64,000 bases of DNA from Alphaproteobacteria bacterium (GTDB lineage: Bacteria; Pseudomonadota; Alphaproteobacteria; Micropepsales; Micropepsaceae), in assembly GCA_003158585.1 (NCBI GenBank), contig PMKE01000071.1, positions 10,003 to 74,002 on the forward strand, read 5' to 3'. Positions 7,737 to 48,459 of the stretch are shown piece by piece. Within the stretch, counting starts at the first letter, position 1. Every line of letters begins with the position of its first letter. A program made the position numbers and the translations under genes. The notes beneath the pieces were generated by a model, which was not told the origin of the DNA, made no database searches, and saw nothing but the letters and a program-made list of their open reading frames with translations.

Positions 7737-7789
7737 TGATCCCCCGAAGAGGTATGCTTGCGGCGTCAAAGCCGTAAAGGACTGAGGAC

Positions 7790-26585: not shown

Positions 26586-27059
26586 TCAATGCAGATGCGT
26601 CAGCCGCCGGAACGACAGCGCCTCGGCGATGTGCGGACGCCTGACGTCGTCCGAACCTGCCAGATCGGCAATCGTACGCGCCACCCGCAGCATGCGATGA
26701 TAACCGCGCGCCGTCAGGCGCATCCGCTCGGCGGCTTCGGAAAGCAGCTTGGCACCCGCCGCGTCCGGTGTCGCGACGCGGCCGAGCAGTTCGCCGTCGG
26801 CTTCGGCATTGGTGCGCACGCCGTACCCCTCGAAGCGCCGGCGCTGGATATCGCGGGCCCGCTCCACGCGCCCCGCCACGTCGGCACTCGACTCGGCGGG
26901 CGGCGGCAGGCTGAGATCGGCTGCGGAGACGCCCGGCACTTCCACATGGATGTCGATGCGGTCGAACAAGGGTCCCGAGATTTTCGACTGGTACTCCTGG
27001 GCGCATTTGGGCGCGCGCCCGCAGGCCTGCGCCGGATCGCCGAGATAGCCGCAGCGGCA
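26586..27059 (-). pseudogene. comM: comM/yifB 3' fragment (C-terminal ~157 codons), separated from its 5' part by the island
   Basis: CRCGYLGDPAQACGRAPKCAQEYQSKISGPLFDRIDIHVEVP...ARGYHRMLRVARTIADLAG is the canonical ComM/YifB C-terminus. It is read in frame after the recombinase ORF. Confidence 0.85.
27054..27059. other. Left island junction (candidate att core)
   Basis: The minus-strand codons TGC-CGC here and TGT-CGT at 47413-47418 are the only sequence shared by the two comM junctions. Confidence 0.5.
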
Positions 27060-28553
27060 TGCATTTGTTGCCTTGCCATCGCGCTTTAGCGAAGCGGGAA
27101 AGTACAAGAGGTTGACGGCAACCTCTTCCTTTCCAACGATAATTTTGTCCGTGATGGTTTCGACCAGCTGGCGCTTCTCCGCTTGGCTGAATTCAGTCCA
27201 ACGAAGGGCCAAGTCTCCAGCATCGGAGACGGACGCCTGCTTCCCGGACACGGAAATTCGCATCACGTCGAGCTTCGCCTGGAGGCGTGGCAGTTCGTCC
27301 TCCAGCTGGTCCCGGCGTTCGGAAAGCGGCTTGTGACGGCGGCCGAAGTCGTCCTGCGACAGCTGGCCTCCGAGGTATAGCTGGTACAGCTGGTCGTCCT
27401 CTTGAGAGATTTTCTCAAGTTCGGCCTTGGCGGCTGCAACCAGCGCTTCATTCTCCCGGATGGCTTCATTCGCGGCTTCAAGATGGGCGGAGACCTGTTC
27501 GGGCGAAAGGAGGAACCGGGAAAGCTCGTCGTGATAAACGGCCTCAAGGTCGGGTATCGGTATCTTGTTCCGGCATTTGGGGCAGATGTACTTGGGAGAG
27601 TTGGCGCCCACGTACATCTTCGCGCCGCACTCACAATAGGCATAGCCGGTGAAGAGGTGGACGTTCTCGCGGGAAGGTTTTTTGTGCGAGACCCGCCGCT
27701 CGTCGAGAATGCGATTGCACTCTTCCCATAATTCCTCGCTCACGATTGCCTCGACGGGCGTTAGTACCCATTCACTCTCGGGCTTCAACTCCCACGACCT
27801 CGTGCGGTCGTTCGTGGTCGTATAGTTCTGGCGATACGTGCCCTTCGCGGACGGGTCGCGGAGAAGGCGGTCAACGGTCGTATCGGAGAACTTGGAGCCG
27901 TTCCGGGTGCGGTATCCGCGCTCGTTCAGGATGCGCGCGACCGCCTTCTTGCGACGGTGTTCGGCGAATAGCTCGTACATGAGAGCGCGGACAGCGCGTT
28001 CCTTGGGATGCGGCTGAAGCTTCTTGTCCTTCCACTGGTATCCGAAGGGAGCGGCCCCGCCTATCGGCCGCCCCATCTTCGCTCGGATCGGGACGGACGC
28101 GGCGACGCGCTCAGCAATCTCTTCGCGCTCCCACTGCGCCATTGCGGCAACGATGGTGAAGAAGAGGCGTCCAGCCGGGGAGCCGGTGTCGATTGCTTCT
28201 TGAAGGGAAATCATGTCCGCGTTCGCGTCCCGGAAGGCGTCCGCGAATTCGAGAAGCTCTCGCGTGTTCCGTGCCAAGCGGGCGATCTTCGAAAACACGA
28301 GCGCGGTTATGTGTCCCGAGCGTATGTCCACGAGCATACGTTTTGCCTCGGGATGCTCCATAACGGTTTTCCCGGAGACGGCCTCAAGGTGGTACACCTC
28401 GCGCACTTTCCACTCCCTAGCCTCCGCGTACATGCGAGCGCGTTTCTCGTGGACCTCGGGGCTTTCGCCCCGTGCCTGGTCTTCCGTGCTGACGCGTATC
28501 CAAATGCCAACGGCTTTCTGCCGGTTGGCGTTCTTTGATGGTGCGGATTTCAT
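27060..28553 (-). CDS. Large serine recombinase (island integrase); ORF runs on in frame into the comM 3' fragment
   Basis: Resolvase catalytic region VGIWIRVSTEDQ, recombinase domain, zinc ribbon YCECGAKMYVGANSPKYICPKCRNK, coiled coil. There is no stop before 26586. Confidence 0.9.
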
Positions 28554-29421: not shown

Positions 29422-30840
29422 TCAATGCCCTTTCTGTGCTTGATCGACATTGCGCTGGGTGCCAGACACGGAATCTGACTGGAGGGAAAAATTCTCTATC
29501 TTGCGCCACTGACTGAACAGGCTCTCATCCGCCTTGGCGATGAAACTCACGACGTCTAGCGCCGCCAACAGTACGAATATAACGAATAAGGCCAAAAGCG
29601 GCACCTTTTCAGTATTCGTGCGCTTGTGCCATTCCCGATCCACCTTGTACGCCTGAAAGGCGATGAATATCGCTGACACGAGAAGGGCGGAGACCGATAT
29701 CAGAAATGCGGGCTTGTTAGTGCTCAATCTCATGAGCAAATACGAAACTACGAAGATGCCGCCAAATAGGCCGTAGTACGCGAAGGGAGTAACGGCAGCG
29801 AAGAACCATCCGCGTGGCCGCCCAACTTGAACTAACTTCTTCTCGGTTGCGGTTTCTATCGCATCGATATCACTAATCGACGCACGCGTCCGCGCTTCTC
29901 TGAGACCGTCATTCTCTTTCAACAAGTTCCCGATGTACTGGGCGTCCTCAGGTTCGATTCCAGCGTGAACGAATCCTCTCAGCAAATGGGCCAGTCGGAA
30001 GTTCTGGGGAATGGAAATGACGTTTTCGTACACAGCTTCGATCATCTCGTAGAAGAAGCGTCGTGCCTTTTCATCCAGTGATGGTCGAAGCATCGCAAAC
30101 GACTTAATTACGAATGCGGGCGTGTACACTTTGTAGCTGTCTGGCCGGTCATTCTTGACCTGAGCAAGCGTGTAGTTTCCGTTTTCTTGAGCGATCAGTT
30201 CAACGCATCGACGCATTCCATTCGTCACCGCTATCGGGTGACCTATGCTCAGCCGACGGGGCGTAAGTGCGTCAAGATAGATCGCAGCCTCGTATGGGTC
30301 GTAGTTATCGCGGCCTGCTTCGTCGTCAAGATGCCTTCGCGCCATTTCGGACGACTGACGAAGAACGGAGAACTCGTTTCCCCCTGCCTCAAGAATGTCC
30401 TTGCATCCATTCACATACAGCCAACGCTCAACGAGAGACGCCGTGCCTGGGGCGAACTTGTCAGAAATGCCCTGGATGCAGCAGTTCTTGAACTTCTCAT
30501 TGACTGTGAAGACAGTCCCGGGTGGAGTTATGAACCGCAAGTGAAAGAGGTAGGCAGAAAGTGCGCGAATGTAGTTTGCCAAATCAAGCGTGCTGGTATC
30601 GCGCGCTAGGACGTCAGCCATAATGAATTCAATCGGGCCTTTTAGCCTTTTCGGAAAATCGGCAGGTACTACAATTGCGGAGGACATAGCCGCGTCAATG
30701 AGCGCGAGAACGACCTCAGCGGTTACGGTGACCGACGGGCGGGTACCTGCCGAATCAAGCGTCCATCCCGCTGCGTCGGGACTGCAAATGCAGGTATCGA
30801 GCAGCTGATCGAAAATCTTTTGGGAAACGGTAGTGGGCAT
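29422..30840 (-). CDS. Hypothetical protein: ~340-aa helical soluble domain plus C-terminal 3-4 TM helices
   Basis: Clean 472-codon ORF in the low-G+C segment. C-terminal hydrophobic helices: FFAAVTPFAYYGLFGGIFVVSYLLM, AFLISVSALLVSAIFIAF, LLALFVIFVLLAALDVVSF. No family recognised. Confidence 0.6.
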   Translation of the reverse strand: MPTTVSQKIFDQLLDTCICSPDAAGWTLDSAGTRPSVTVTAEVVLALIDAAMSSAIVVPADFPKRLKGPIEFIMADVLARDTSTLDLANYIRALSAYLFHLRFITPPGTVFTVNEKFKNCCIQGISDKFAPGTASLVERWLYVNGCKDILEAGGNEFSVLRQSSEMARRHLDDEAGRDNYDPYEAAIYLDALTPRRLSIGHPIAVTNGMRRCVELIAQENGNYTLAQVKNDRPDSYKVYTPAFVIKSFAMLRPSLDEKARRFFYEMIEAVYENVISIPQNFRLAHLLRGFVHAGIEPEDAQYIGNLLKENDGLREARTRASISDIDAIETATEKKLVQVGRPRGWFFAAVTPFAYYGLFGGIFVVSYLLMRLSTNKPAFLISVSALLVSAIFIAFQAYKVDREWHKRTNTEKVPLLALFVIFVLLAALDVVSFIAKADESLFSQWRKIENFSLQSDSVSGTQRNVDQAQKGH

Positions 30841-30979: not shown

Positions 30980-31585
30980 TCAGTTGATGAGGAATCCAAC
31001 ACCGAAACCGCGATTGAATGCATCTGCAGAGTCGCGTGAAAGCTTTGATTGGAGTAAGAAAACCCATTCCGTGGTGTCGTCCGATGAGACAATGTCCGAC
31101 CCAAAATCCACGAGATATCCAATCGATTCGTTCAGGCGAATATCTGCCCAAAGTTCGGTAGGGCGGAGCTTTAAGTGCGCAAGCTCCCGAGCAATCTTCC
31201 CCATTTGCAGCGCAACATCCGCTTGCATCAAATCGGGCGACGGCATTTCGTCCGGTATGAATTGTTCAATAGAGACTGCCGGGTACGTGGCGTACAGGTG
31301 GGGCACAGGCACGCCTCGCGCGCCGATCATCTTTCGCCTTTGTTCGCTCCGAACCTGTTGCTGTTCAGGAGAAAGGCCCCACCCGACGAATGCCTTCGCA
31401 ATAACGTGTTCGCTTGTATTTTCGGAAAGAGCCAAGACGCCTTCCGCAACATAGGTCTCAGAGCCGCCCCTTCGCCAAGACCCAACGTCGGAGATCGCTA
31501 TAACAGCGCCCGCCGATCTTCGGACCCACTTCCGATTGATCGCCTCTAAGAGCTGCGACTCATTGAGCTTGTATTCGGAGAGCAT
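30980..31585 (-). CDS. Small protein-kinase-like fold protein (RIO/Kdo/APH-like minimal kinase)
   Basis: Candidate VAIK-like lysine VIAKAF, and a catalytic-loop plus DFG arrangement ADIRLNESIGYLVDFGSD. Only 201 aa. Confidence 0.5.
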   Translation of the reverse strand: MLSEYKLNESQLLEAINRKWVRRSAGAVIAISDVGSWRRGGSETYVAEGVLALSENTSEHVIAKAFVGWGLSPEQQQVRSEQRRKMIGARGVPVPHLYATYPAVSIEQFIPDEMPSPDLMQADVALQMGKIARELAHLKLRPTELWADIRLNESIGYLVDFGSDIVSSDDTTEWVFLLQSKLSRDSADAFNRGFGVGFLIN

Positions 31586-31613: not shown

Positions 31614-32237
31614 TTAGCTATTTTTCGCTCCTAGCAGCCGAATGACCTCAACGGGCGTTTCGCCGTGGACGTATACGCCGTTCCACTTTTTGTTCAGCAT
31701 GGCGACGTATTCGTTCCACTCTTCGGGTAAAAATGCCTTTATTCCACGTTTCTTCAAGAATTCGCGCAACGTCTCTTCTGCTTTTTTATCGTCGTGCAGC
31801 TTGCCGACGTATTCGACCTCGACAAAGCAATCCGCCGCTTGTGTCGGGTTCTTAAAATCTAGCACTTCTTGGACTGCAATCTCGACTTCTCCAACCGTGC
31901 CCCTATGTATTCTACGCCCACCAGCAACACCTTTCTCGTATCCCAGCAACGCCATAACGGAGAGTGCTCCGCTCAAGTCCTCTGGCAAAATGCGAGCGAT
32001 TGCCTCCTCTCGCTTTGCCCCTCCGAACTGGCCACGCTTCACGACGAACTCAGGGCTTCCGTTCGTCACTCTCACACGAACGTCCAAACGGCGTTCTCCG
32101 ATGCCTTCAATGAAGGTGGAATAGTCGATAAAGCACCTTGATTGGACGACGGCATCCGCGGCTTTGCCAAGCTCGTCCTTTAGTGTCTTCGCTTGCGCTT
32201 CGGTGACGTGTGCCCTGAGTTCGATTTCTGTGGCCAT
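31614..32237 (-). CDS. CYTH-like (triphosphate tunnel metalloenzyme; CyaB/ThTPase family) protein
   Basis: N-terminal ExExK-like EIELR. Alternating charged beta-strands RLDVRVRV, EFVVKR, EVEIAVQEV and FVEVEYV are typical of the tunnel fold. Start lies 2 nt after the NDK-like stop. Confidence 0.6.
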   Translation of the reverse strand: MATEIELRAHVTEAQAKTLKDELGKAADAVVQSRCFIDYSTFIEGIGERRLDVRVRVTNGSPEFVVKRGQFGGAKREEAIARILPEDLSGALSVMALLGYEKGVAGGRRIHRGTVGEVEIAVQEVLDFKNPTQAADCFVEVEYVGKLHDDKKAEETLREFLKKRGIKAFLPEEWNEYVAMLNKKWNGVYVHGETPVEVIRLLGAKNS

Positions 32238-32239
32238 GT

Positions 32240-32776
32240 TTAGTTTTCCAATCCTTGATTTGGGAACCAGAGCGAGATTTCGTAATTCGCTTCCAGGTAC
32301 GGCTCAGAGCCGGACGCCTTGTCCGACGCGTGAACTAAGTTGGCTGTGCCTCGCTTTTCCGAATTTGCTTTAGCAATGCTATCGGTTCCAAAATCTCCAC
32401 GAATAGTACCTGGAAGTGCATTTTGTGGATCGGTAGCCCCAACGAGCGCACGCACTCGCTTGATGGCGTTCTCTCCGCCCAATACCATTGGAAGAACATT
32501 CCCCGACATCATGTAATCACGATTCCAGCCGAGGACCATTCTACCATAAGCAGTGACGTCATTCCCGACGTCCGTTCCAGCAGCGCGGCTCTTTTCACCA
32601 ATGATCGGTGCCAGCTTTTCGACTTGGTAATGCCTGTTGAACGCCTCAGCACTAGGTTTGTCGAGGCGGGCAGCCAGGATCGTAAGTCCGGCTCGCTCAA
32701 ATCGATGGATAATATCGCCTGCCAAACCACGCTTGATCGTGTCGGGCTTCAGAATAACAAGCGTCTTCTCATACAT
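32240..32776 (-). CDS. Nucleoside diphosphate kinase-like protein (divergent, extended)
   Basis: TLVILKPDTIKRGLAGDIIHRFERAGL and the catalytic-His motif NLVHASD. Longer than canonical NDK, with an internal insertion and a C-terminal tail. Confidence 0.75.
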   Translation of the reverse strand: MYEKTLVILKPDTIKRGLAGDIIHRFERAGLTILAARLDKPSAEAFNRHYQVEKLAPIIGEKSRAAGTDVGNDVTAYGRMVLGWNRDYMMSGNVLPMVLGGENAIKRVRALVGATDPQNALPGTIRGDFGTDSIAKANSEKRGTANLVHASDKASGSEPYLEANYEISLWFPNQGLEN

Positions 32777-32900: not shown

Positions 32901-33812
32901 TCAGAAATGCCGCATTAACCGGGCAACGTGAATTTTCAGGTACTCAAAGACTACGTACGTCCACATTTCTTCATTTAGATAGAATGAGTTACGCTCGTCT
33001 AGAGCGTTCGGCGCACCACGCCGAATGACAAGGGGTGACCAATCAGCAACAGCTTTGAACGTCAATGCGGCTCTTCGCAGGTGGAAAGGAGCTGTCACAA
33101 TTATCACGCGCCGTGGCAGAGAGCTGCCACTAGCACGAAGCACAGCAACCGAATTGACGACATTCTCGGGTGTGTTTCTTGCCTCCCTTTCAAGAACTAA
33201 GTCCGCCTCCGGCACGCCTGCTTGACGGGCGATTTCGGCGTAATAGTCGGCTTCGGCTCCGTCGAAGTGCCGCAGATAGCTTGCCTGCTTCCCGCTAAAC
33301 AGGATTTTGCCACAGAAGCCATTCTTGTAGAGCTTTATTGCCTCGTATACCCGCTGTTCGCCAGGCCCGCCGAATACAAAAACCAAATCTGCCGGGCTGA
33401 GGGGGTCCTCGCCAGATAGATAGTCCCAAACCTCTTCGAGTGCGCGTTTCTGTTCGTCACTTAGGCTAGCGCGAATCAGAAGGAAAGCCCTGTGGACTAT
33501 TGCGGTAACCGCGCGTGAATCGATTCCCTGAGGTGATGCGAAGCGGTAGGGATCGTCTGCAATACCTAAAGCTTCCAGCGCTCGGGTTAAGTGGAATAAT
33601 TCGAGCGTCTCAAGAGGACGCTTTTCGGAAATCTCGGCAGCGATCCGTTCAAGATAATCACGTTCGGTCGCCAAATGGGGATGGTATTTACCGGTCATCA
33701 TTTGCCTCCGGTATAGCCCGAAGTGGGAGACGTGGTCCAAGAAGCCACCTAAACACTCAAGAACACGTTCACGAGAGAGGTTGCAGTGCTTCGGCCGAAA
33801 ACTAGCCGACAA
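32901..33812 (-). CDS. DUF218/YdcF-family protein with N-terminal extension
   Basis: DLVFVFGGPGEQRV, ILFSGK, ARNTPENV and VIIVTAPFHLRRA match the YdcF/SanA-type DUF218 pattern. The start may instead be the MMTGKY ATG near 33701. Confidence 0.6.
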   Translation of the reverse strand: MSASFRPKHCNLSRERVLECLGGFLDHVSHFGLYRRQMMTGKYHPHLATERDYLERIAAEISEKRPLETLELFHLTRALEALGIADDPYRFASPQGIDSRAVTAIVHRAFLLIRASLSDEQKRALEEVWDYLSGEDPLSPADLVFVFGGPGEQRVYEAIKLYKNGFCGKILFSGKQASYLRHFDGAEADYYAEIARQAGVPEADLVLEREARNTPENVVNSVAVLRASGSSLPRRVIIVTAPFHLRRAALTFKAVADWSPLVIRRGAPNALDERNSFYLNEEMWTYVVFEYLKIHVARLMRHF

Positions 33813-33856: not shown

Positions 33857-34576
33857 TTGCAGAGAGGTCCCATGTTTCCCTTCATCAAAATCTGTGGCGT
33901 CCAGTCACAAGCCGAAGCAAAACTCTGCGTTTCAGCGGGCGTCACGGCGGTCGGCTGTCTCGTTGGGCTGACGCACAAGGCGGAAGACAAGGTTACACCT
34001 GACGTAGCCGCGGGTATCTTCGCATCTCTTCCGAAGGAGGTGCTCAGCGTGCTCGTGACCCATCTCACAGAGGTGGACGATCTGGTTGAGTATGCAAATC
34101 TGACCAAGCCGCGTGCCATTCAGGTACACGGTGACGCGAGCCTTCAAACTGTCGAGCGCCTCGCGTCTCGCTTGCCGAACGTTGTGTTGATTAAGGCTGT
34201 GCATGTGCTCGATCAGGGCGCGGTTGAAGTGGCCCGAGAGTGGGACAACGCGCCAATATCCGCAATTTTATTAGACAGTCGCACAGCCGACCGCCTGGGC
34301 GGGACAGGGCAAACACACGATTGGGGAATCAGTGCGGCGATTGTCCGCGCATCCAAGCATCCGGTAATTCTCGCCGGTGGACTGAGTCCAGCGAATGTCG
34401 GAGACGCGATCCGGGCGGTTTGTCCCAAAGGAGTTGACACCAACAGCGGTGTCGAAGTTGTAGGTGGTGCAAAAGACCCTCTCAAAGTGAGAGCATTTGT
34501 TCAAACGGCACGCGACGAATTCGCGCGCTGTGATTCCGTGGGCGACGTATGTCAGCCGCCAAACACTGCGAAATAA
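33857..34576 (+). CDS. Phosphoribosylanthranilate isomerase (TrpF)-family protein, island-borne
   Basis: IKICGV, LLDSRTADRLGGTGQTHDW, ILAGGLSPANV and GVDTNSGVE. ATG 33872 is an alternative start. Confidence 0.75.
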   Translation: MQRGPMFPFIKICGVQSQAEAKLCVSAGVTAVGCLVGLTHKAEDKVTPDVAAGIFASLPKEVLSVLVTHLTEVDDLVEYANLTKPRAIQVHGDASLQTVERLASRLPNVVLIKAVHVLDQGAVEVAREWDNAPISAILLDSRTADRLGGTGQTHDWGISAAIVRASKHPVILAGGLSPANVGDAIRAVCPKGVDTNSGVEVVGGAKDPLKVRAFVQTARDEFARCDSVGDVCQPPNTAK

Positions 34577-35715
34577 AACCGCTGGAGAAGCGGACCTACC
34601 TGTTTAGGGAACAACTCATTTAGTCCGGTCACGGCGGCGAGAATGGCCGCCGCAATTTGCCATAGGCGATTCGTCACCCGACTGATGCGCTGAAAGACCA
34701 GTGCGCGAAGTGACATATATTCTTGCTCAATGCCGAAATTATCCAACGAGGCTTCGTCCTCGATATTGCCGATGGTTGTGCGATCCGATTTGACAACGCG
34801 GCAGATAATCGGCCACGAAATCTCCCTGAACTCTTCTATAAATTCACGCTGATGCGAGACGTTTTCTCCGACTATCGCTAAGCCGCATGCCAAAGCATCT
34901 CTTGTGCCGGTGCTTGTCGCACGATCATGAATGGTTTCCTCAAATCTCCGAACGGTACCATCTGAGAAGATGAGCTTTATCCCAATGTCGTGAGCGGTCC
35001 CGTCAGCGTTTTGCTCGAATTTATCGAACACTCCGATGACTGAGACGCATAGCTCCCCGAGCATGGAATGGAAATCGGTTACACTTCTTTCTGCAAACGA
35101 ATTCTCCAGAGCTTTGAAAATGCGCGCGTCTGTTGCCAGCGCCCGTACTGGGACGTGAGACGCGCGTTGGGCCTCCGCGAACCGGAGCACCTTTGTTTCA
35201 GATACACTTGCTATCGTGATTGGTTTGCCTACGCGGTTGCATAGCTCTAACGTCTGAGACAACTGGTCTGCGGAGAGATTGCAGTCGATGATTACGGATG
35301 ATGACCGCCTTATAAGCCGACGAATTCGCCTTAGTGGTAGGTCAATTCTATCGACGCCAGTTGAAGTAACGGCAGATACATAATTGCCTTCATGTTTGTT
35401 AGCGACAAAGGCACCCGCGTATGACCGGCGATCACGAGAGATGGACTCTGTCGAGACACCCTCGCGGCGCAAGCGGGAGACGATCCACTTCTCTACCACA
35501 CTCCCGGCTCGGACAGCCGTCCAGATCCCAACCTTGTATCCGAGGCGGGCAAGATTGACGCTGACGTTATAGGCGCTTCCACCAAGTCGAACCTCAATGT
35601 GCCCGACCTTATCGAGATGTTTTGGATCGTCATGTGATATTCCTAAAATATCGACATGGGCCGATCCGATAATCGCAAAACGCGCCCTTTTTCTTTTTGT
35701 CCCCGTTGCGCGCAT
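34552..35715 (-). CDS. PfkB/ribokinase-like kinase with hydrophobic C-terminal extension
   Basis: FAIIGSAHVDILG, RLGGSAYNVSVNLARLG (GG motif), and a degenerate anion-hole motif STGTRDALACGLA. C-terminal LWQIAAAILAAVTGL. The ORF opens at 35787. Confidence 0.65.
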   Translation of the reverse strand: MRATGTKRKRARFAIIGSAHVDILGISHDDPKHLDKVGHIEVRLGGSAYNVSVNLARLGYKVGIWTAVRAGSVVEKWIVSRLRREGVSTESISRDRRSYAGAFVANKHEGNYVSAVTSTGVDRIDLPLRRIRRLIRRSSSVIIDCNLSADQLSQTLELCNRVGKPITIASVSETKVLRFAEAQRASHVPVRALATDARIFKALENSFAERSVTDFHSMLGELCVSVIGVFDKFEQNADGTAHDIGIKLIFSDGTVRRFEETIHDRATSTGTRDALACGLAIVGENVSHQREFIEEFREISWPIICRVVKSDRTTIGNIEDEASLDNFGIEQEYMSLRALVFQRISRVTNRLWQIAAAILAAVTGLNELFPKQVGPLLQRFYFAVFGG

Positions 35716-35946
35716 TGGTCCCCCCGACACCAATACTGAACAGCCTGAACGTTGCGCTTCTTCCTCGCCGCTGTTTGTAAGGCGCACGCACCGCTAGGCG
35801 GCTCCCCATGGCGATATTGTCCGGCTAGTTGCCGAGACGCAAGTATGTGATCGCGACCTTACCTCATCTGCAATGTCGCTGCGGTGCGCTTCGAACGAAA
35901 ATTCAGTGGGCTACCAGTCACTTATCTCTGATACTCCTGTTGAGAG

Positions 35947-36480
35947 TCAGATTAACTCGTTCCGGTTTGCGTAGTGCACGATAAGTAGCGCCGCCGCGTT
36001 GAAGAGCGCCATTTTGATGTCTTCAGTCTCCCACGGTCGGCGCTTGTTGGGAAGCCTATGCCGAATCTCCTTGAGGTACGACGCGACAGTGGACGCGATG
36101 GCATAGCGTGTCTTGGGCTTCGTGCTTTCGAAGCAGAATTTGATTTGCTCGCGCGAGATAATGCGAAGCGGCGTTTTGTTCATCACAGAGAGTGACGCGA
36201 TGGACCGGCACAGCTGCTGTATCCGCTTGCTCCGCCGCGTAGCCCCTCCTTCGAAGGCTTCAAGGACGATTGATGCGGGATGATATTCCGCGACGATGGA
36301 CTCGACGCGCTTCATGCACCGGGCGTTCTTCTCTTGCGGCGTGCCGGGCATCTTGGCCGCGGCGCAGATATCCCACGCCACTGGAGATAGCGGACCGTCG
36401 AAGACGATCCACCCGAATCCGTCCTTGGACGGGAAGATCGCGAGCGCAGTGTTAAAGCCGAGACGGTTGCTGTTCGTCAT
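35947..36480 (-). CDS. Hypothetical protein (weak RNase H/RuvC-like N-terminal pattern, key Asp not conserved)
   Basis: 177-codon ORF overlapping the upstream XRE gene by 4 nt. LAIFPSKDGFGWIVF resembles but does not match the RuvC motif. Confidence 0.45.
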   Translation of the reverse strand: MTNSNRLGFNTALAIFPSKDGFGWIVFDGPLSPVAWDICAAAKMPGTPQEKNARCMKRVESIVAEYHPASIVLEAFEGGATRRSKRIQQLCRSIASLSVMNKTPLRIISREQIKFCFESTKPKTRYAIASTVASYLKEIRHRLPNKRRPWETEDIKMALFNAAALLIVHYANRNELI

Positions 36481-36827
36481 ACGTTTGGTTGTTCGCCCGC
36501 AACCCGCGAGGCGATCTCGTCGAGTAGTTGGCGCTTGATAATCGACTCCGCGTCGGTGAGGCCGCAGAGCGTCTCGGCCAACAGGGCGGCGCGCTTGGCG
36601 ACCTTCAACTCGACAGCGGCATAGAGGGAGGGAAAGATACGGCGCGCGTGCACGCCGAAGATGAATTCAGCGGCAATTAGCGATTCTTTTGAGGGACCAC
36701 GGTTCAGCTTTTCGTATCGAATGATCGCTTCGTCTGATATCCCAAGGAGTGCACCCAACTCACGTTGCGTGAGCGCCCACCGCTTGCGGTACATTTTCAA
36801 ATATGAGGGATATGGATAGTCGTGCAT
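36477..36827 (-). CDS. XRE-family HTH transcriptional regulator
   Basis: KRWALTQRELGALLGISDEAIIRYEK helix-turn-helix. Confidence 0.75.
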   Translation of the reverse strand: MHDYPYPSYLKMYRKRWALTQRELGALLGISDEAIIRYEKLNRGPSKESLIAAEFIFGVHARRIFPSLYAAVELKVAKRAALLAETLCGLTDAESIIKRQLLDEIASRVAGEQPNV

Positions 36828-37090: not shown

Positions 37091-37300
37091 ATGAAAGACA
37101 ATCAACTTTCCCCCGGCGACCTCTTCATTGATCGGTACATGCCCGGAGCGAGCGCCGAAGAGCGCGAGGAAGCGGAGAAGAATCTAGAACGCTTCGTCGC
37201 CGCCCTTGTTCGCATCGACAAGCGGCTCGAATGGGAGAAGCGGAATGCGATTCGCACGAATCCCGATTCGGAGGTAGATTCCATTAGCACCCGCATATGA
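37091..37300 (+). CDS. Small acidic hypothetical protein upstream of recombinase 2
   Basis: 69 codons. The stop overlaps the recombinase ATG (ATGA), which suggests translational coupling. Confidence 0.4.
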   Translation: MKDNQLSPGDLFIDRYMPGASAEEREEAEKNLERFVAALVRIDKRLEWEKRNAIRTNPDSEVDSISTRI

Positions 37301-38847
37301 AGCAATACTTCGCGTACATCCGCGTCTCGACTGCCAAGCAGGGAGAACACGGATCGTCATTGCAGGAACAGCGAAGCGCCATTGAGGCGTATGCGTCTCG
37401 GAATAGCCTCTCGATAGCTGAATGGTTTGAGGAGCGCGAAACTGCAGCGAAGCAGGGCCGTGCGGTGTTTTCCCGGATGCTTGCCAAGCTGGAGAAAGGC
37501 GACGCGCAGGGCGTCGTTATACACAAAATCGACCGGAGCGCGCGAAACTTGAAAGATTGGGCGAACCTGGGCGACCTTATCGACCGCGGTATCGACGTGC
37601 AGTTTGTCCACGACAGTTTCGACATGCGCTCCCGTGGCGGACGCCTCTCCGCCGATATCCAGGCCGTCGTTGCCGCCGACTATATCCGCAACCTTCGCGA
37701 TGAAGTGAAGAAGGGCTTCTATGGCCGCCTAAAACAGGGCCTTTATCCCTTGCCAGCGCCCATTGGCTATCTCGACCAGGGCAAGGGAAAGCTAAAGATT
37801 CCCGATCCAGTACGCGCGCCTTTGGTGAAAGAGGCATTCGAGCTGTACGCGACCGGCACCGCATCGTTGCGGGTACTTCAGAAGGAAATGAAGCGGCGCG
37901 GATTGAGGACTAAGGCTGGCAAGCCGCTCTCGCTGAATTCCCTCGACCAGATGCTCCACTGCCCGTTCTATGTCGGCCTTATCCGCATCATGAAAACGGG
38001 CGAGACGTTCGAAGGAAAGCACGAACCCATCGTCTTCAAGTCAACTTTCGACCGCGTGCAGGCCATCATGCGGGGCAAGACGGTATCGCGGCAGGTGAAG
38101 CATGATTTCACCTTCCGTAGAATCGTCCGGTGCGGGACGTGCGGCCGTCACCTCGTCGGAGAGCGTCAGAAGGGCCGGTACGTGTACTATCGCTGCCAAG
38201 TGCCGGACTGCCGGGGAACCATCGTCCGGGAGAAGGACCTCGACCACGCGGTACAAACCGCGCTCTCCCTTCTCCGAAGCGATCCGGCGGAGCAGCGATG
38301 GATTGAAGCCAAAGTGACAAATCTCACCAAGCAGGACGCCGAAGGGCTGGAACGGCTCAAGGCCTCCATTCAGCTACGCCTTGCGAAATCCGACGTGCGG
38401 CTGTCCCGGCTCACGGACGCATACCTTGACCGCGATATCGACAGAGAGATTTTCGAGCACCGGAAAAGTGTCGTTTTGGAGGAGCGGGCCAACCTCCGGG
38501 ACGAATTTTCTCGACTGTCCGCGAACGACCTGTCCGTGCACAGGGCACTCAGAAACCTCGAACTCGGAAATACGGCTCTGTCCGGCTACAAATCGGGAAT
38601 TCCCGCCGAACAGCGGGAAATCATCGAAAGCGTGACCTCGAACTTCACGCTACACGGAAAAAACATAGTGATTGCGCTACGTTCTCCGTTTAGAGGGTTA
38701 GCAAACTGGCGTGAATCGCAAATCGGTGCGCCGCATCGGGACACGGCTCAAGAACGCGCCGCGCAAATCCTCGATATCGCGCTGAGGGACGCCAAGGTGT
38801 CAGGTTCCGCCCCCGTTTCGCAGGACGGGCACAAACTCGCGACATGA
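37297..38847 (+). CDS. Second large serine recombinase
   Basis: FAYIRVSTAKQ catalytic serine region, recombinase domain, zinc ribbon RCGTCGRHLVGERQKGRYVYYRCQVPDCRG, coiled-coil tail. Confidence 0.9.
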   Translation: MKQYFAYIRVSTAKQGEHGSSLQEQRSAIEAYASRNSLSIAEWFEERETAAKQGRAVFSRMLAKLEKGDAQGVVIHKIDRSARNLKDWANLGDLIDRGIDVQFVHDSFDMRSRGGRLSADIQAVVAADYIRNLRDEVKKGFYGRLKQGLYPLPAPIGYLDQGKGKLKIPDPVRAPLVKEAFELYATGTASLRVLQKEMKRRGLRTKAGKPLSLNSLDQMLHCPFYVGLIRIMKTGETFEGKHEPIVFKSTFDRVQAIMRGKTVSRQVKHDFTFRRIVRCGTCGRHLVGERQKGRYVYYRCQVPDCRGTIVREKDLDHAVQTALSLLRSDPAEQRWIEAKVTNLTKQDAEGLERLKASIQLRLAKSDVRLSRLTDAYLDRDIDREIFEHRKSVVLEERANLRDEFSRLSANDLSVHRALRNLELGNTALSGYKSGIPAEQREIIESVTSNFTLHGKNIVIALRSPFRGLANWRESQIGAPHRDTAQERAAQILDIALRDAKVSGSAPVSQDGHKLAT

Positions 38848-39306: not shown

Positions 39307-39774
39307 CTACTTCTTTGAACCAGCCCCCATCTTCTTGATAAGCAAGTCAGCAATGTACGGCACACCCTTAGTGAGGGGAACGTAACCGACCGTTGGAGGC
39401 ATGCCTTTCAAGTCCGTGTCGTCCACCCGCACGGGCAGGATGTACTCTTTGCCCTGCTCTTCTAGCGCCCTAGCCTGTGCGCTTTGGCGCTCGTGATTTG
39501 TCCACATCCTCTCCGCATATTCCCTTGAAACGAACATGACGCAGAAGCGAGCGCGCTTGCGGTAAATTTCGTCGAATGTATCAACGAGGTTTTTACCCCA
39601 AAGAAATTCGGGATAGAAATCGTCATAGAACACAGCAATTCCGGCATTCCGCAGAAGCTTGGCCAGCTCTTCCGCTTGCATCCGCTCCGTGCCAGCGAAG
39701 GAAATTGCTATGTCGAAAGTCTGTGGATCAGCGGCTGGCTTCTTGACGGTCGCGCCTCCGATCCGTCTCCGCAC
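39307..39774 (-). CDS. TIR-domain protein (ThsB-like, stand-alone)
   Basis: FDIAISFAGTERMQAEELAKLLRNAGIAVFYDDF, FCVMFVSREYAERMWTNHERQSA (conserved W...E) and ILPVRVDD. Confidence 0.8.
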   Translation of the reverse strand: MRRRIGGATVKKPAADPQTFDIAISFAGTERMQAEELAKLLRNAGIAVFYDDFYPEFLWGKNLVDTFDEIYRKRARFCVMFVSREYAERMWTNHERQSAQARALEEQGKEYILPVRVDDTDLKGMPPTVGYVPLTKGVPYIADLLIKKMGAGSKK

Positions 39775-39780
39775 ATCGGT

Positions 39781-40647
39781 TTACAGCCGCTCTGATGGGC
39801 GGGCGAAAGGCAGAAAAGTCAGACCGGACTTCTCAATTTCTGCGTTGGCGGTGAGGAGTTTCTCAATGCCGGCCGAAAAACTCTTCGCATGCGAGTCGAA
39901 CCAGCCGTGTGCAGTATTTGCGTTGCTGTCAAAGAAACCATCGCCGCGCGAGTCGAACTTGATGGACCGCCAGTAGCAATCTTCGAAATCGAACTCGGGA
40001 CAATCGCCAAATGTCTTGAGACCGAGAAACTTGAAGACGCTCTCCAGTTCGGCCGACAGCGGCGGGTGTTTGGGTCGGTAATGGATGACCCACCCCTTCT
40101 CCCGTCCGGTATCCAGCCAGGTTAAGCGGTACAGGAAATTATCGTCCTCGCTCTGCTTCATGCTCTCGTGTTTTGCGGCCGTATGGCCGTCGCCGCCGAA
40201 GCTGAAATCGAGCTGCCGTCCGCGAGACTGCTTCCCGAAGAAGTATCCCCATCCCTCCGGCTGGACGAAAAAGAAGCCGCAGCTTTCAAGCTCGCGCGCA
40301 GCCGCTCCCAAATTGCCGTACGCCGCGCCGAAAAGGCTTGCGAACTGCTCCACGTTGAAGCCCTCGTCCACCCAGCGCACGTAGCATTGACGGCCTGCGG
40401 CGAACCCGCAGCCGCTCCGCTCGAATCCTAGATAGCTGAGAAAATCGGGAATCTGTATGCCGGACGTGGACCATGTGCTCGGCTCGACATGCAGGCTGTA
40501 CCCGATATCGTCCTTGCTCCATTGCAGGCGCGCTAACAGGAAGTTAGCGCCGCCGCCCTGCGCTCTCGCTACAACCTCGGACTTCAAAGCTTGGTGTGGA
40601 TCGCGTGCCATAATCGCAAACTCAATGCCGACTCCTTGAGCGAGCAT
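39781..40647 (-). CDS. Hypothetical protein with internal two-fold repeat, co-transcribed with the TIR gene
   Basis: 288-codon ORF ending 7 nt before the TIR start. Two similar modules: FLSYLGFERSGCGFAAGRQCYVRW... and FKFLGLKTFGDCPEFDFEDCYWRS... Confidence 0.55.
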   Translation of the reverse strand: MLAQGVGIEFAIMARDPHQALKSEVVARAQGGGANFLLARLQWSKDDIGYSLHVEPSTWSTSGIQIPDFLSYLGFERSGCGFAAGRQCYVRWVDEGFNVEQFASLFGAAYGNLGAAARELESCGFFFVQPEGWGYFFGKQSRGRQLDFSFGGDGHTAAKHESMKQSEDDNFLYRLTWLDTGREKGWVIHYRPKHPPLSAELESVFKFLGLKTFGDCPEFDFEDCYWRSIKFDSRGDGFFDSNANTAHGWFDSHAKSFSAGIEKLLTANAEIEKSGLTFLPFARPSERL

Positions 40648-40678: not shown

Positions 40679-42463
40679 ATGCGCGGAATGACGAAACTGG
40701 CCCCGAAATCTCAACTGACGGCGACAAGATCACAGAGCGTTGCGACAAACGGTCTTCGGCTCGTTCGACAGCTGACGCTTGCAGGACTTGATCCGCTGGA
40801 ATCGGCAGTGGAAATCGCGTCCGCCGCCGGAATCGAGGCGCGGGGTGCGGTATTCACAAAGCGCGAGGTCGTCGAGTTCATTCTCGATCTGGTCGGATAC
40901 ACGACTGATCGCGACCTTACGCACCTTCGGCTCCTTGAGCCTGCCTTCGGAAACGGGGATTTTCTTCTCGTCGCTGCGGAGCGGCTTCTTGCCTCATATC
41001 GCACCCATCCCGGCAGTAAAACGAGTCAGGGCGGAGCAACTGCGCTTCGGAACAGTATTCGGGCCGTTGAACTACATCGCGGTACTTTCGATGCGACACG
41101 TGAGAAGCTCAAGGCGCTTCTCACTGCGAACAACGTGGGAGACGAGACATCGGAAGAACTCCTGGCCGCTTGGCTTCAGTGTGGAGACTTCCTTCTAGCC
41201 GATATTGACCACACCTTTCATGTGGTCGTCGGCAATCCGCCCTATGTCCGTCAAGAACTCATTGCAGACGCGCTCATCAACGAATATCGCAGGCGTTACC
41301 AGACCATATTCGACCGGGCGGACATATACGTTCCATTTATCGAGCGCTCTCTATCTTTGCTTGAGCCGAAAGGAACGCTCGGTTTCATTTGCGCCGACCG
41401 TTGGATGAAGAATCGATATGGTGGGCCACTCCGGCGATTCGTCGCTGACAGATATCGACTCAAATATCATGTCGATATGACGGACACTCCGGCATTCCAC
41501 AGCGACGTTATCGCGTACCCTGCAATTTCGATCATTTGCCACGAGAAATCCGGTCCCACTCGTGTCGCATACCGGCCGGAAATCGAGGCGGCGTCGCTCA
41601 ATACCCTTGCGCGAGAATTAAAGGGTAAGAAGTTGTCAGCGCGGGTCACCGAATATCCGACAATCACTTCGGGCGACGCTCCTTGGATACTTGAGGGTAA
41701 CGGACGTGGGAAGATCGTGCGGGCGCTTGAAGCGCGACTGCCGACGCTTGAGGAAGCCGGATGCATGGTCGGTATCGGTGTTGCCACGGGAGCCGACCAA
41801 GTTTTCATTCAGCCCCTCGACGAATTTAACCTTGAACATGATCGCACGCTCCCGCTTGTCATGACGCGAGACATTGAAACGGGGACGATCAAGTGGCGCG
41901 GATACGGCGTGCTCAATCCGTTTGGAGAGGATGGAAAGCTCGTTTCGCTTCGCGATTATCCGAAGCTCGCTGCATACCTCGAAACACATGGAGCGGCGAT
42001 CAAGGCGCGGCACGTGTCTAAGAAGAACCCGAACTCGTGGTATCGGACGATTGACCGGATTTATCCCGAACTCACACACCGGCCGAAACTACTCATTCCC
42101 GATATCAAGGGAACAGCGCATATCGTCTATGATAGTGGTCGGTTCTATCCGCATCACAATCTCTACTACATCACTTCCGAGACGTGGGACCTTCACGCGC
42201 TGCGGGCGATACTGCGCTCGGGCGTCGCGTGGCTCTTCGTTTCGACATATGCCACGAAGATGCGCGGCGGATACCTACGATTTCAAGCGCAATATCTTCG
42301 TCGCATCCGCGTGCCGCATTGGAAAGACGTTCCGGCAAAAGTGCGCGAGGAATTGGTGCAAGCGGGCAAATCAAATGATGCCAATCGCTGCAACGACGCA
42401 GTTGCGCACCTATATGGCTTGGGCGAGTCGGAACGGTACGCTTTAATGGGGGGTGAAAGCTGA
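40679..42463 (+). CDS. Gamma-class N6-adenine DNA methyltransferase (Eco57I/TaqI-like; M.XhoI/M.PaeR7I-type)
   Basis: [16 protein letters not shown], motif [13 protein letters not shown], motif [11 protein letters not shown], plus a C-terminal target-recognition domain. ATG 40688 is an alternative start. Confidence 0.85.
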
Positions 42464-42466
42464 TCT

Positions 42467-43210
42467 ATGGCGCTCAATCTTGCAAACTACGACGAAAAGT
42501 CCCGCGAGGCCGTGAGGGCGTTTTGGGGAAACCGCGAAGCGGCGAGGAAAAAACAAATCGAGCTTGGCAAAAGCGACCAGGGCGAGCGGGCAGGCGTCAC
42601 GGGTGGCAAGAACATGGACGGGTTCGCCGCTCTCGTTCTCGACCTCGTCGCGGCGAACGGACTCGCTGACGCGCAAATCATGCGGGAAAGGCGTGCACTG
42701 ACACTTCCCGGTTATTTCCGTCCTACGAAGCTCTGGGATTTGCTCGTAATCCACGGGGGACAGCTGCTTGCTGCGCTCGAATTCAAGTCGCAAGTCGGGC
42801 CGTCGTTCGGAAATAATTTCAATAATCGCGCGGAGGAATCCCTCGGAACGGCCGTCGATTTCTGGACAGCCTACCGGGAGGGGGCGTTCGGGGAAATTCC
42901 AAAGCCGTTCGTCGGCTGGATGATACTCGTCGAGGACGAACCGGCGTCGCGGGCAAAAGTGAAAGAAACTTCGCCGAATTTTCCGGTATTTGAGGAGTTC
43001 AAAAACGTCTCGTATGCAGAGCGGTACAATATCCTCTGCAAAAAGCTCGTTAAGGAACAGCACTACACCGCCGCATCGGTGCTCCTCTCGCCGCGCGATG
43101 CGATCAACTCGGGGATGTACAGTGAGATGTCAGAGCTTACGGACCTCAAGACATTCGTGACCGGCTTCGCAGGGCACATCGCGGCGGCAGCAGCGCGGAA
43201 GAGCGCCTAG
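42467..43210 (+). CDS. XhoI/PaeR7I-family type II restriction endonuclease
   Basis: [26 protein letters not shown] and [23 protein letters not shown] match my recollection of the RE_XhoI family. Starts 3 nt after the methyltransferase stop. Confidence 0.75.
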
Positions 43211-46792: not shown

Positions 46793-46961
46793 GCGGAGGC
46801 ATTCCCCTTATCGGCTTGCAGTATCCGCAGCGGGGCCACCCGTCGCACACAAGCCAGTACCGCCGCATGAAGAGGGTCCGCAGGGATCGGCCGATCCGCA
46901 CTTGAAGCGGCTTGCCGCACTCGGGGCAGACCTTGTTCTCGTTCGCAGCCTCAAGCGGCAT
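46758..46961 (-). CDS. Small topoisomerase-type C4 zinc-ribbon protein
   Basis: CPECGKPLQVRIGR...WLVCDGWPRCGYCK. ATG 46961 overlaps the end of the tandem-HTH ORF by 11 nt. Confidence 0.55.
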   Translation of the reverse strand: MPLEAANENKVCPECGKPLQVRIGRSLRTLFMRRYWLVCDGWPRCGYCKPIRGMPPPNPSVQTATLR

Positions 46962-47412
46962 CGCGGCCCCCTTCCGGCTCGCTTTCCATCGCGAGGAACC
47001 GGGACACCTTGTCCCCTGACAGGCGCGGCTTCCAGTCTCCACGTTCCCAATGGGAAAGCGTGCCCTCGTCAACGCCGAGGAGCTTCGCGGTTGTCTTGAT
47101 GGACAGACCGAGCCGCAACCGCTGCCGGGAGATGCGCTCTGCCAGGGTGGCAGGGGCCGGGAGGGGGTCATAGCCGAGGAAGCGAAAGATCGCCGGGAAC
47201 TGCTTAGCCGTGGGCTTCACACGGTCCTTTTCCCAGAGGAGGACCGTCTCGGGCGCTGTGAGGAGTTGTAACGCCGCCTGGGGTTGGGTCAGACCCAGCT
47301 GAAGGCGACGCCTAAGCAGATGTTCGCCCAAGGTTTTGGGCGTCTCGGCATAGGGCTTCGGACGACGCCATCGCAGGGAGACCGGGACGTGGGGGTGCAG
47401 GAAGGCAACGCG
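46951..47412 (-). CDS. Tandem XRE-type HTH protein, currently fused in frame to the comM 5' fragment
   Basis: Two HTH units, LRRRLQLGLTQPQAALQLLTAPETVLLWEK and ISRQRLRLGLSIKTTAKLLGVDEGTLSHWER. No internal ATG; an in-frame TTG at 47331 is a possible own start. Confidence 0.6.
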   Translation of the reverse strand, partial: RVAFLHPHVPVSLRWRRPKPYAETPKTLGEHLLRRRLQLGLTQPQAALQLLTAPETVLLWEKDRVKPTAKQFPAIFRFLGYDPLPAPATLAERISRQRLRLGLSIKTTAKLLGVDEGTLSHWERGDWKPRLSGDKVSRFLAMESEPEGGRDAA

Positions 47413-47418
47413 ACGACA
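47413..47418. other. Right island junction (candidate att core)
   Basis: Minus-strand TGT-CGT directly after ...GCG ATG AAT CCC (AMNP). Counterpart of 27054-27059. Confidence 0.5.
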
Positions 47419-48459
47419 GGGATTCATCGCCGCCACCAGCTGGAAGCGCGCCGGATAGCGCACATGGGCGTTGGCGCGCGCCACGATGGCCTCGCCCGTC
47501 TCGATCGGCTGGCGCAGGGAATCGAGCACCGCACGCTGGAACTCGGGCAGCTCGTCGAGGAACAGCACACCCAGATGAGCCAACGACACTTCGCCCGGCT
47601 TGACCTTCAGCCCGCCGCCGACCAGCGCCGCCATCGAGGCCGAATGATGCGGCGAGCGGAACGGGCGCCGCCGCGAAATCGTGCCGTCCGGCAATTCGCC
47701 CGCCAGCGACTGCACCATCGAGATTTCCAGCGCCTCGCGCGCGTCGAGCGGCGGCAACAGGCCGGGCAGGCGCTGCGCCAGCATCGACTTGCCCGCGCCC
47801 GGCGGCCCGATCATCAGCATGTTGTGGCCTCCCGCCGCGGCGATCTCCAGCGCCCGCTTGGCGGTCTCCTGGCCCTTGACGTCCTTGAGGTCGGGAATGG
47901 AGGTGCGGTCGTCGGCCAGCTTCGCCGCCGGGCGATTCAGCACCTGCACGCCGCGCATGTGATTGACGAGAGCGATCAGCGAGGGTGCGGCGATGATCTC
48001 CACGTCGCCCGCCCAGGCCGCTTCCGAGCCGCAGGCCGCCGGGCAGATGAGGCCGCGATGTTGCTCCGAGGCGGCGAGTGCGGCAGGCAGCACGCCCGCC
48101 ACTGCGATCACCTGCGCGTCGAGCGAGAGTTCGCCCAGCGCCACGTAGTGCTCCATCTCGCTAGCGGGCAAGACGCCCATCGCCGCCAACAGGCCGAGCG
48201 CGATGGGGAGGTCATAGTGGCTTCCCTCTTTCGGCAGGTCGGCCGGGGCGAGGTTCACCGTGACGCGCTGCCAGGGCATGGACAGGCCGATGGCGGTAAG
48301 CGCCACGCGCACCCGCTCTTTCGACTCCGCCACCGCCTTGTCCGCCAGGCCGACCAGGGTGAACTGGCCGCTGCCGCCGTCGGCGATGTGAACCTGCACA
48401 TCGACTTCGCGTGCTTCGATGCCCTGGAAGGCGACGGTATAGATGCGTGCGACGGTCAT
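47413..48459 (-). pseudogene. comM: comM/yifB 5' fragment (N-terminal ~348 codons)
   Basis: MTVARIYTVAFQGIEAREVDVQVH, Walker A MIGPPGAGKSMLA, Walker B GVLFLDELPEF. Ends at RFQLVAAMNPC, then switches to island sequence. Confidence 0.85.

Follow-up and report, generated by a model that had tools for sequence, protein, structure and literature searches.

Why would an island of foreign-looking base composition carry a gene for a phosphoribosylanthranilate (PRA) isomerase-like protein, with no other gene of tryptophan biosynthesis nearby, and why would that gene run head-on into one for a ribokinase-fold protein? This question is raised by a 64,000-nt stretch of an alphaproteobacterial contig (PMKE01000071.1, positions 10,003 to 74,002 of the forward strand; hereafter the window), in which a TrpF-like and a PfkB-like gene converge and overlap. 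The two genes encode a conserved functional pair. Our overall reading, which we hold at about even chances, is that a TrpF paralogue without a role in tryptophan synthesis and a remodelled PfkB protein form the accessory arm of a six-gene conflict or signalling module.

Two overlapping convergent genes

The TrpF-like gene, of the PRA-isomerase fold, occupies 33872..34576 on the + strand (234 aa), and the PfkB/ribokinase-fold gene lies opposite at 34552..35715 on the − strand (387 aa). Their ATG starts at 33872 and 35715 follow the gene calls on an identical public metagenome scaffold (234 aa and 387 aa), with which homologue alignments agree. A first-pass annotation, made from the sequence of the window, had quoted the maximal open reading frames (ORFs), which begin at TTG 33857 (33857-34576, +) and at GTG 35787 (34552-35787, −); both ORFs exist, and only their starts had to be moved inwards. 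The 25-nt overlap of the 3′ ends described there is confirmed by the stop codons, which place it at 34552..34576, a stretch coding for the TrpF-like C-terminal tail, which is not conserved. Elsewhere the 3′ ends of the pair overlap by 23 nt (locus L004), 4 nt (L006), 29 nt (L116) or not at all (L002). A scan around the overlap in the window returned 0 promoter-like sites and 11 terminator-like sites against 4.4 expected, and was uninformative.

The setting was also described correctly at the outset. The pair shares a low-G+C block with an operon encoding NDK-like and CYTH-like proteins (G+C 0.52-0.56 over 29-36 kb versus 0.63-0.69 in the flanks), the TrpF-like gene is divergent from a DUF218 gene on the − strand, and no further trp gene is found within the 64-kb window.

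Sequence signature and genomic context of the TrpF-like protein

All TrpF motifs quoted in the first-pass annotation were recovered from the ORF translation (FIKICGV, GGTGQTHDW, LAGGLSPANV, GVDTNSGVE). The protein matches Pfam PRAI (PF00697) with 102.5 bits (cut-off 22.7; E 3e-29) and PDB entry 1lbm at 7e-25, but it falls under all 13 NCBIfam TrpF equivalog cut-offs, with a best score of 146 bits versus 215. When it is aligned to Thermotoga maritima TrpF, the catalytic Cys, the catalytic Asp and the phosphate-binding loops line up, and Cys8 (codon 33893-33895, +) and Asp135 (34274-34276, +) are invariant in alignments of TrpF-like proteins. At the position of T. maritima Arg36 the protein has Asp39 (33986-33988, +), beside a two-residue insertion, and three additional histidines, His35, His64 and His111, are conserved in its class. 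Compared with TrpF proper (EC 5.3.1.24; T. maritima 1LBM/1NSJ), the (beta/alpha)8 fold, the Cys/Asp pair and the GGTG, LAGGL and SGVE motifs are thus shared, whereas the Arg36 position, the loop length and the three histidines differ.

Homologues run into the thousands. The top five, at 54-64% identity, are exactly the copies linked to the module described below; next comes a broad cloud from many phyla, at 45-56% identity, whose members share the patterns G-[LIT]-T-H-x-[AS]-E-D, V-T-H, K-A-V-H-V and T-H-D-W. In PLSDB plasmids, TrpF matches were found at the canonical level only (30-38% identity).

Genomic context separates this cloud from tryptophan genes. We collected 80 TrpF-like loci from species-representative genomes and clustered the neighbouring ORFs; 78 loci were usable for counting signatures, 17 with the gene beside trpA, trpB, trpC, trpD, trpE or trpG (trp-linked) and 61 without trp neighbours. 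The combination His35/Asp39/His64 occurred in none of the 17 trp-linked genes and in 49 of the 61 others (Fisher 8e-10), while Arg or Lys at positions 38/39 showed the reverse distribution (16/17 versus 2/61; Fisher 1.5e-13); the compared sequences are not independent, so both Fisher values overstate the evidence, although the pattern itself is clean. Members of the signature class, which is never found beside trp genes, pair instead with PfkB-family or with large toroid-transmembrane (toroid-TM) proteins. The class is present in Nocardia and Mycobacterium; many actinomycetes use PriA for the PRA isomerase step.

The phylogenetic placement that the first-pass annotation had called for was only partly achieved. 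In a neighbour-joining tree, the module-linked proteins form one clade (139-149 of 200 bootstraps), whose sister group consists of stand-alone or plasmid copies. The split between trp-linked and other TrpF sequences, however, appeared in only 3 of 200 bootstraps and the deep nodes are unresolved, so that the class is defined by its signature and context and not by a robust tree. Taken together, the sequence data point to a paralogue class with apparently intact Amadori chemistry and a rebuilt aglycone pocket, predicted to be more polar and lined with His. The protein in the window accordingly looks like something other than a tryptophan-pathway enzyme, and the initial suspicion that this island-borne gene is not a housekeeping trpF is supported.

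A ribokinase-fold protein with altered active-site motifs

The partner protein had been described as a ribokinase-fold protein with a GG motif (LGGSAYN) and a degenerate anion-hole motif (STGTRDAL). Both motifs are present. Its match to the Pfam PfkB family covers the N-terminus only and is marginally under the cut-off (25.7 versus 25.8 bits), but an AlphaFold model (predicted local distance difference test score, pLDDT, 74) aligns over ~320 residues with ribokinase-fold kinases. The best Foldseek hits were 2nwh and the E. coli pseudouridine kinase PsuK (E ~4e-12; target-normalised TM-score 0.63-0.70). LGGSAYN and the catalytic Asp273 are invariant. The NxxE motif, by contrast, is replaced by TDARIF in the window protein and by T-D-x-R-I-F in the clade, with loss of the Glu, and in place of the GAGD anion hole stands GTRD (Arg272-Asp273, 34897-34902, −), or G-x-R-D with an invariant Arg across the clade. 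The clade further carries a 10-residue insertion in the ATP-side hairpin and new conserved motifs (F-D, C-R and N-F-G-I-E).

Beyond the kinase fold, the model shows a C-terminal extension of ~77 aa, shorter than the ~100 aa first proposed, that ends in a long helix, as proposed. Its most hydrophobic 19-mer (aa 351-369, LWQIAAAILAAVTGLNELF; 34609..34665, −) averages 1.46 on the Kyte-Doolittle scale, a borderline value for a membrane helix or anchor; its position matches clear TM helices (2.0-2.5) of relatives. From the model and these comparisons, we describe the protein as a predicted membrane-tailed, ribokinase-fold member of a nucleoside-kinase-like family.

Set against PsuK/YeiC and other ribokinase-family kinases, the fold over ~320 residues, the GSAxxD, GG, DCNxS and VSxxK motifs and the catalytic Asp are alike, whereas T-D-x-R-I-F, G-x-R-D, the 10-residue insertion and the ~77-aa extension with NFGIE and a hydrophobic helix set the protein apart. 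Both proteins of the pair therefore resemble their reference enzymes at the level of the fold, and both appear to lack the feature that defines the function of those enzymes (Arg36 for TrpF; NxxE and GAGD for PsuK/ribokinase). The conservation within the clade suggests that the PfkB-like protein is under selection yet remodelled at its phosphate-donor site.

Members of the clade are genuinely very scarce. Four PfkB-like proteins, that of the window among them, came out of a word-seeded search of 5.8 billion clusters, and exhaustive HMMER searching of 1.84 billion representatives yielded one more full-length relative as well as a fragment, for five known relatives in all. Nothing was found when the four-sequence alignment was run against 185,579 species-representative genomes and metagenome contigs of the Joint Genome Institute (JGI). 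The wider PfkB family is larger, with at least 290 representatives at E <1e-10 in the HMMER search. Its N-terminal 180 residues, comprising the lid and the ribose-binding half, are well conserved between the PfkB-like protein and this family, in which NxxE and GAGD are usually canonical and variable C-terminal parts follow the kinase domain.

We tallied these C-terminal architectures over the 117 closest family representatives. About 59 carry at least one hydrophobic helix at the C-terminus, 21 a GGDEF domain and four a TIR-type effector domain; single members carry a phosphorylase domain matching PADLOC PDC-M60C (3e-60), a nitrilase and a nucleoside deoxyribosyltransferase-like domain. GxGD is missing from 21 of the 117, and GxRD is confined to the window's clade. 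A single small-molecule-binding domain joined to interchangeable outputs is, by analogy, the pattern expected of sensor-output proteins. Given the loss of NxxE, the altered anion hole and the swappable outputs of the family, the PfkB-like protein may bind its ligand rather than phosphorylate it.

This architecture invites comparison with CBASS, Pycsar, Thoeris and the ancillary effectors of type III CRISPR systems. Like these, the PfkB family would join a binding-type domain to TM, TIR, phosphorylase or nitrilase parts, and an adjacent small enzyme gene and a defence-island or mobile context also resemble such sensor-effector systems. On the other side, no CD-NTase, cyclase, TIR synthase or Cas10 is conserved, the partner being a TrpF-fold isomerase or an S-adenosylmethionine (SAM) methyltransferase, and the putative PfkB sensor has a kinase fold with its catalytic motifs mostly intact.

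The methyltransferase, of class I, is a second recurrent upstream partner of PfkB-family genes and was seen in 10 metagenomic loci as an alternative to the TrpF-like gene. In L128 the methyltransferase gene (5309-5998) encodes a 230-aa protein and lies upstream of a PfkB-GGDEF gene, the one PfkB-family partner whose domains were checked.

Recurrence of the gene pair

Every PfkB-like relative with genomic context, all four database relatives included, adjoins a convergent PRAI gene. In the wider family, a TrpF-like gene is directly adjacent in eight of 61 metagenomic loci encoding PfkB-family members, and these eight represent four lineages (L102/103/110, L115/116, L119/120 and L125); in L115/116 the two genes are convergent and overlap by 29 nt. 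Furthermore, a Microcystis chromosome (L065) has a PfkB-TM gene followed after 24 bp by a TrpF-like gene, and a Paraburkholderia plasmid (L010) has a TrpF-like gene 1 kb from a PfkB-GGDEF gene. The adjacency hence extends to at least six lineages beyond the window's clade. The C-terminus of the PfkB partner is a GGDEF domain in L116, L119, L125 and L010 and consists of TM helices in L102 and L065, and all PfkB-linked TrpF-like copies have Asp39, His64 and His111 (His35 is Tyr in L065). Since the TrpF-like gene is linked to the PfkB domain whatever output follows, the association is best explained by a shared ligand.

One of these copies, linked to a PfkB-GGDEF gene (L119:5085-5780), carries Ala where the catalytic Cys is expected; either the copy is inactive, or the difference is an artefact of the alignment or start site.

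TrpF-like genes have another recurrent neighbour. In nine actinomycete loci (Nocardia, Frankia and others; L027, L029, L040, L060, L066, L068, L069, L073 and L092, ~6000-8900 in each), the gene lies beside one for a 440-480-aa membrane protein whose N-terminal domain is squalene-cyclase-like and whose C-terminal part has TM helices. This protein is homologous to one encoded in locus L013 (E 1e-17). In four of the nine, an EamA-like transporter gene lies between the two.

A six-gene module on mobile DNA

Next to the pair in the window lie four genes on the − strand that recur together elsewhere. The first encodes a 472-aa protein (29422..30840), a candidate membrane effector, in which a soluble helical domain at the N-terminus precedes TM helices at the C-terminus. 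That domain bears the motif GW..D...PSxTVTxEVxLAL, and the protein compares with the squalene-cyclase-like toroid-TM proteins of L013 and Nocardia at an hhalign probability of 26% (E 7e-4); no PDB match was found for this toroid link, and the kinship is tentative. The second gene (30980..31585) encodes a 201-aa protein with WRRGGxET, an invariant Lys, D-x-R and DFGxD motifs. Its weak Bud32/Rio1 matches (E about 0.6), together with the motifs, tentatively suggest a kinase-like fold; a single-sequence structure model reached pLDDT 37.

The third gene (31614..32237) encodes a 207-aa CYTH-like protein, or triphosphate tunnel metalloenzyme (TTM), with an N-terminal ExExR motif. Compared with class IV adenylate cyclases and TTMs, its profile matches the fold of PH1819 (8e-4) and Saci_0718 TTM (0.03) in the PDB, but the protein is too divergent for Pfam. 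The fourth gene (32240..32776) encodes a 178-aa NDK-like protein with the catalytic-His motif NLVHASD; like other NDKs it matches the Pfam family (2e-33), but in two stretches around a ~40-residue insertion. NDK is the best conserved protein of the module, with 59-77% identity between loci. Its gene lies 2 nt from the CYTH-like gene in the window, and the two overlap by ~4-17 nt in related loci. This tight coupling, in a set with a small kinase-like and a large membrane protein, distinguishes the two from ordinary CYTH and NDK proteins, and the combination is undescribed in the literature searched.

The full set of six (PfkB-like, TrpF-like, small kinase-like, CYTH-like, NDK and large membrane protein) occurs in the window and in L002, and partly on the short contigs L006 and L157. 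In L002/L003, within an integrative and conjugative element (ICE)-like element with MobA, TraG, Abi_C and HepT/MNT genes, one strand encodes a 490-aa membrane protein, NDK, the CYTH-like protein, a 209-aa protein and the TrpF-like protein, to which the PfkB-like gene is convergent. In L006, the TrpF-like/PfkB-like pair adjoins NDK and CYTH-like genes, and L157 has NDK, CYTH-like, 209-aa and TrpF-like genes on one strand. Between the 209-aa gene and the TrpF-like gene downstream of it, both on one strand, lie 26 bp in L002 and 63 bp in L157. The first-pass annotation had proposed a module of seven genes, to be judged by whether the pair ever occurs with the NDK/CYTH genes in other genomes. Such co-occurrence was found in L002/L003, L006 and L157, but the seventh gene, DUF218 (32901..33812, −; called start 33698), is absent from every other module instance examined. 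The conserved unit thus comprises six genes, and DUF218 is an accessory or passenger.

Of the 32 relatives of the CYTH-like protein in the 5.8-billion-cluster database, three were inspected for genomic context. L011 and L012 have a four-gene core (large membrane protein, NDK, CYTH-like and ~210-aa protein) without TrpF-like or PfkB-like genes. In L013, beside an integrase gene, the core is accompanied by a TrpF-like protein, a TIR-FGE-sulfatase protein and a membrane protein of squalene-cyclase-like type. TIR genes, transposases and an integrase occur in the surroundings of L011 and L013. No CYTH-like protein was found in PLSDB plasmids, and no relatives of the CYTH-like or PfkB-family proteins in IMG/VR viral contigs, which leaves a phage origin unsupported. 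The module is very rare and horizontally mobile.

A second, partial TrpF-like frame of L013 (7579-8055; 41% identity over 160 aa), probably a pseudogene remnant, is flanked by the squalene-cyclase-like gene and a methyltransferase gene. L013 also has a methyltransferase similar to the 230-aa SAM-methyltransferase partner of PfkB-family genes.

Proposed function and alternative explanations

The reading that we favour assumes that the two proteins of the pair share an N-ribosyl, ribosylamine-type compound other than PRA as substrate or ligand. The PfkB domain would bind this compound at the membrane, and canonical members of the family would probably phosphorylate its 5′-OH. The TrpF-like protein would open the resulting 5-phosphoribosyl-amine to 1-amino-1-deoxyribulose 5-phosphate (ribulosamine 5-phosphate), with Cys as general base, Asp as general acid and the 5-phosphate site retained. 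That the module clade has an Arg in its anion hole and no NxxE suggests a ligand that already carries a phosphate, or an unusual donor; the PfkB-like protein would more likely serve there as a ligand receptor, or use a non-canonical donor, and be coupled to the membrane by its tail. Production or turnover of a nucleoside polyphosphate within this circuit would fall to NDK, the CYTH-like protein and the small kinase-like protein, with the 472-aa protein and the PfkB tail acting at the membrane. Pfam and PADLOC scans found no dedicated nucleotide-signal synthase (CD-NTase, PycC cyclase or ThsB TIR) in the module, in which the CYTH-like protein could act as a cyclase. From gene content and context, the module most likely serves as a conflict (anti-phage or anti-mobile-element) or signalling unit and not in amino-acid metabolism.

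Several observations weigh against this interpretation. On the side of the isomerase, Arg36 is taken to contact the anthranilate carboxylate in 1LBM, a role that a literature search did not confirm; the non-independence of the sequences behind the Fisher values and the poorly supported deep split of the tree, both noted above, add to this. On the side of the PfkB-like protein, the receptor role is read from motif loss and domain architecture, the tail is of borderline hydrophobicity, and 52 of the 59 TM-tailed family members retain GxGD and may be plain kinases. GGDEF outputs are as much at home in ordinary signalling as in defence. Core alone and pair alone both occur, so their union could be a juxtaposition of two units, and the core of L012 sits among housekeeping genes. 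Finally, none of the six module proteins nor DUF218 matches any PADLOC-DB v2 model, and full-text literature searches returned nothing relevant, leaving the gene combination undescribed in the texts searched.

The juxtaposition just mentioned leads to an alternative that we judge somewhat unlikely, namely that a self-contained TrpF-like/PfkB-like pair lies beside an unrelated system of NDK, CYTH-like, kinase-like and membrane proteins in a mosaic island. It would account for the core without the pair in L011 and L012, for the pair without the core in L065, L010, L102/103/110, L115/116, L119/120 and L125, and for the orientation in the window, where the pair is not aligned with the NDK operon. 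Yet on every sufficiently long contig (the window, L002 and L006) the GxRD clade and its TrpF-like partners are found with NDK/CYTH genes, in L002 and L157 the TrpF-like gene shares the orientation of the small kinase-like gene and follows it by 26-63 bp, and the module-linked TrpF-like proteins form a clade of their own. TrpF-like genes are, moreover, independently tied to large toroid-TM proteins in L013 and the nine actinomycete loci. A salvage or catabolic cassette, in which an active, membrane-associated PfkB kinase acts on an imported ribosylamine- or nucleoside-like compound, the TrpF-like protein isomerises the product, and NDK and CYTH belong to ordinary nucleotide metabolism, is in our view unlikely. 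It comes near the first-pass proposal that the pair might supply or modify a phosphoribosyl intermediate for the neighbouring nucleotide enzymes. PfkB kinases acting on Amadori compounds are known (FrlD), the nearest solved relative is a pseudouridine kinase, the ribose-binding N-terminal half is well conserved with Asp273 kept, and the TrpF-like class is widespread as a single chromosomal gene, all of which fit such a pathway. What speaks against it is that the module conserves neither a transporter nor a downstream catabolic enzyme, that the PfkB-like protein lacks NxxE and has an Arg intruding into its anion hole, and that the family is fused to TIR, phosphorylase-effector, nitrilase and GGDEF domains instead of metabolic enzymes; the extreme rarity of the module and its residence on mobile or defence-island DNA fit it no better.

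The simplest explanation, an ordinary trpF serving the tryptophan pathway of the host or the island with a chance neighbour, would be in keeping with the Pfam PRAI match, the intact catalytic Cys, Asp and phosphate-binding motifs, and the label phosphoribosylanthranilate isomerase that relatives bear in some sources. It is nevertheless highly improbable in the face of the sub-threshold scores against all 13 equivalog models, the Asp at the Arg36 position, a signature class never linked to trp genes, the lack of any trp gene in the window, carriage on a low-G+C island, an ICE and a plasmid, and the conserved PfkB partner.

A more specific version of the conflict or signalling interpretation, and a distinctly speculative one to which we assign a low probability, is that the TrpF-fold protein makes or destroys a ring-opened, Amadori-type second messenger, ribulosamine-5-phosphate. 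The PfkB-fold domain would then be the receptor for membrane, GGDEF, TIR and phosphorylase outputs, and the pathway would be wired to the NDK/CYTH/kinase-like circuit and the membrane effector. There is a modest chance of categorically new chemistry here, in the form of an Amadori-type messenger sensed by a kinase fold, and bacterial immune or stress signalling would gain both a previously unknown chemistry and a receptor fold.

If the favoured reading is true, a large class of 'TrpF' paralogues is mis-annotated as a tryptophan enzyme in many genomes. Species-representative genomes contain at least 600 pattern matches, from Nocardia, Mycobacterium, Victivallales, cyanobacteria and archaea among others, a figure in which true trpF genes linked to trp operons are counted as well (17 of the 78 analysed loci). 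The ribokinase fold would also join the known ligand-binding domains behind TM, TIR, GGDEF and phosphorylase outputs, and a rare mobile module of NDK, triphosphate-tunnel enzyme, mini-kinase-like protein and membrane protein would have a chemistry that described defence and signalling systems do not explain. By analogy, the system can be viewed as an enzyme and a modular binding-output protein on mobile DNA. With six genes in about 6.4 kb, the module would be a compact and testable candidate.

Further genes of the island

The low-G+C block belongs to an integrative element of ~20 kb inserted in comM/yifB. Each junction yields an in-frame fusion: on the left, of a large serine recombinase with the ComM/YifB C-terminal part (26586..28553, −), and on the right, of the ComM/YifB N-terminal part (ChlI and Mg_chelatase domains) with a helix-turn-helix (HTH) domain encoded by the island (46951..48459, −). 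A second large serine recombinase is encoded inside the island (37297-38847), and an HTH gene and a 177-aa gene (35947-36827) lie by it, upstream of the PfkB-like gene. None of these three genes is conserved beside the pair in other loci, and the island may be composite or nested.

A complete XhoI-like Type II restriction-modification (R-M) pair lies at 40679-43210 and consists of a 594-aa Eco57I/TaqI_C-type methyltransferase and a 247-aa XhoI-family endonuclease (PADLOC matches of the restriction enzyme and its methyltransferase at 1.6e-111 and 1.3e-236). At 39307-40647, a TIR-domain gene (155 aa, PADLOC PDC-S66-like) is found directly downstream of a 288-aa gene, for which there was no family match; the two may make up a two-gene defence unit of their own. 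The 876-aa product of 44162-46792 has a TrwB-type coupling-protein P-loop region and matches a mad8-like model (PADLOC, 2.9e-16). With the R-M system, the TIR protein, the mad8-like protein and the recombinases aboard, the pair lies in a mobile element rich in defence genes. The element also encodes an orphan methyltransferase.

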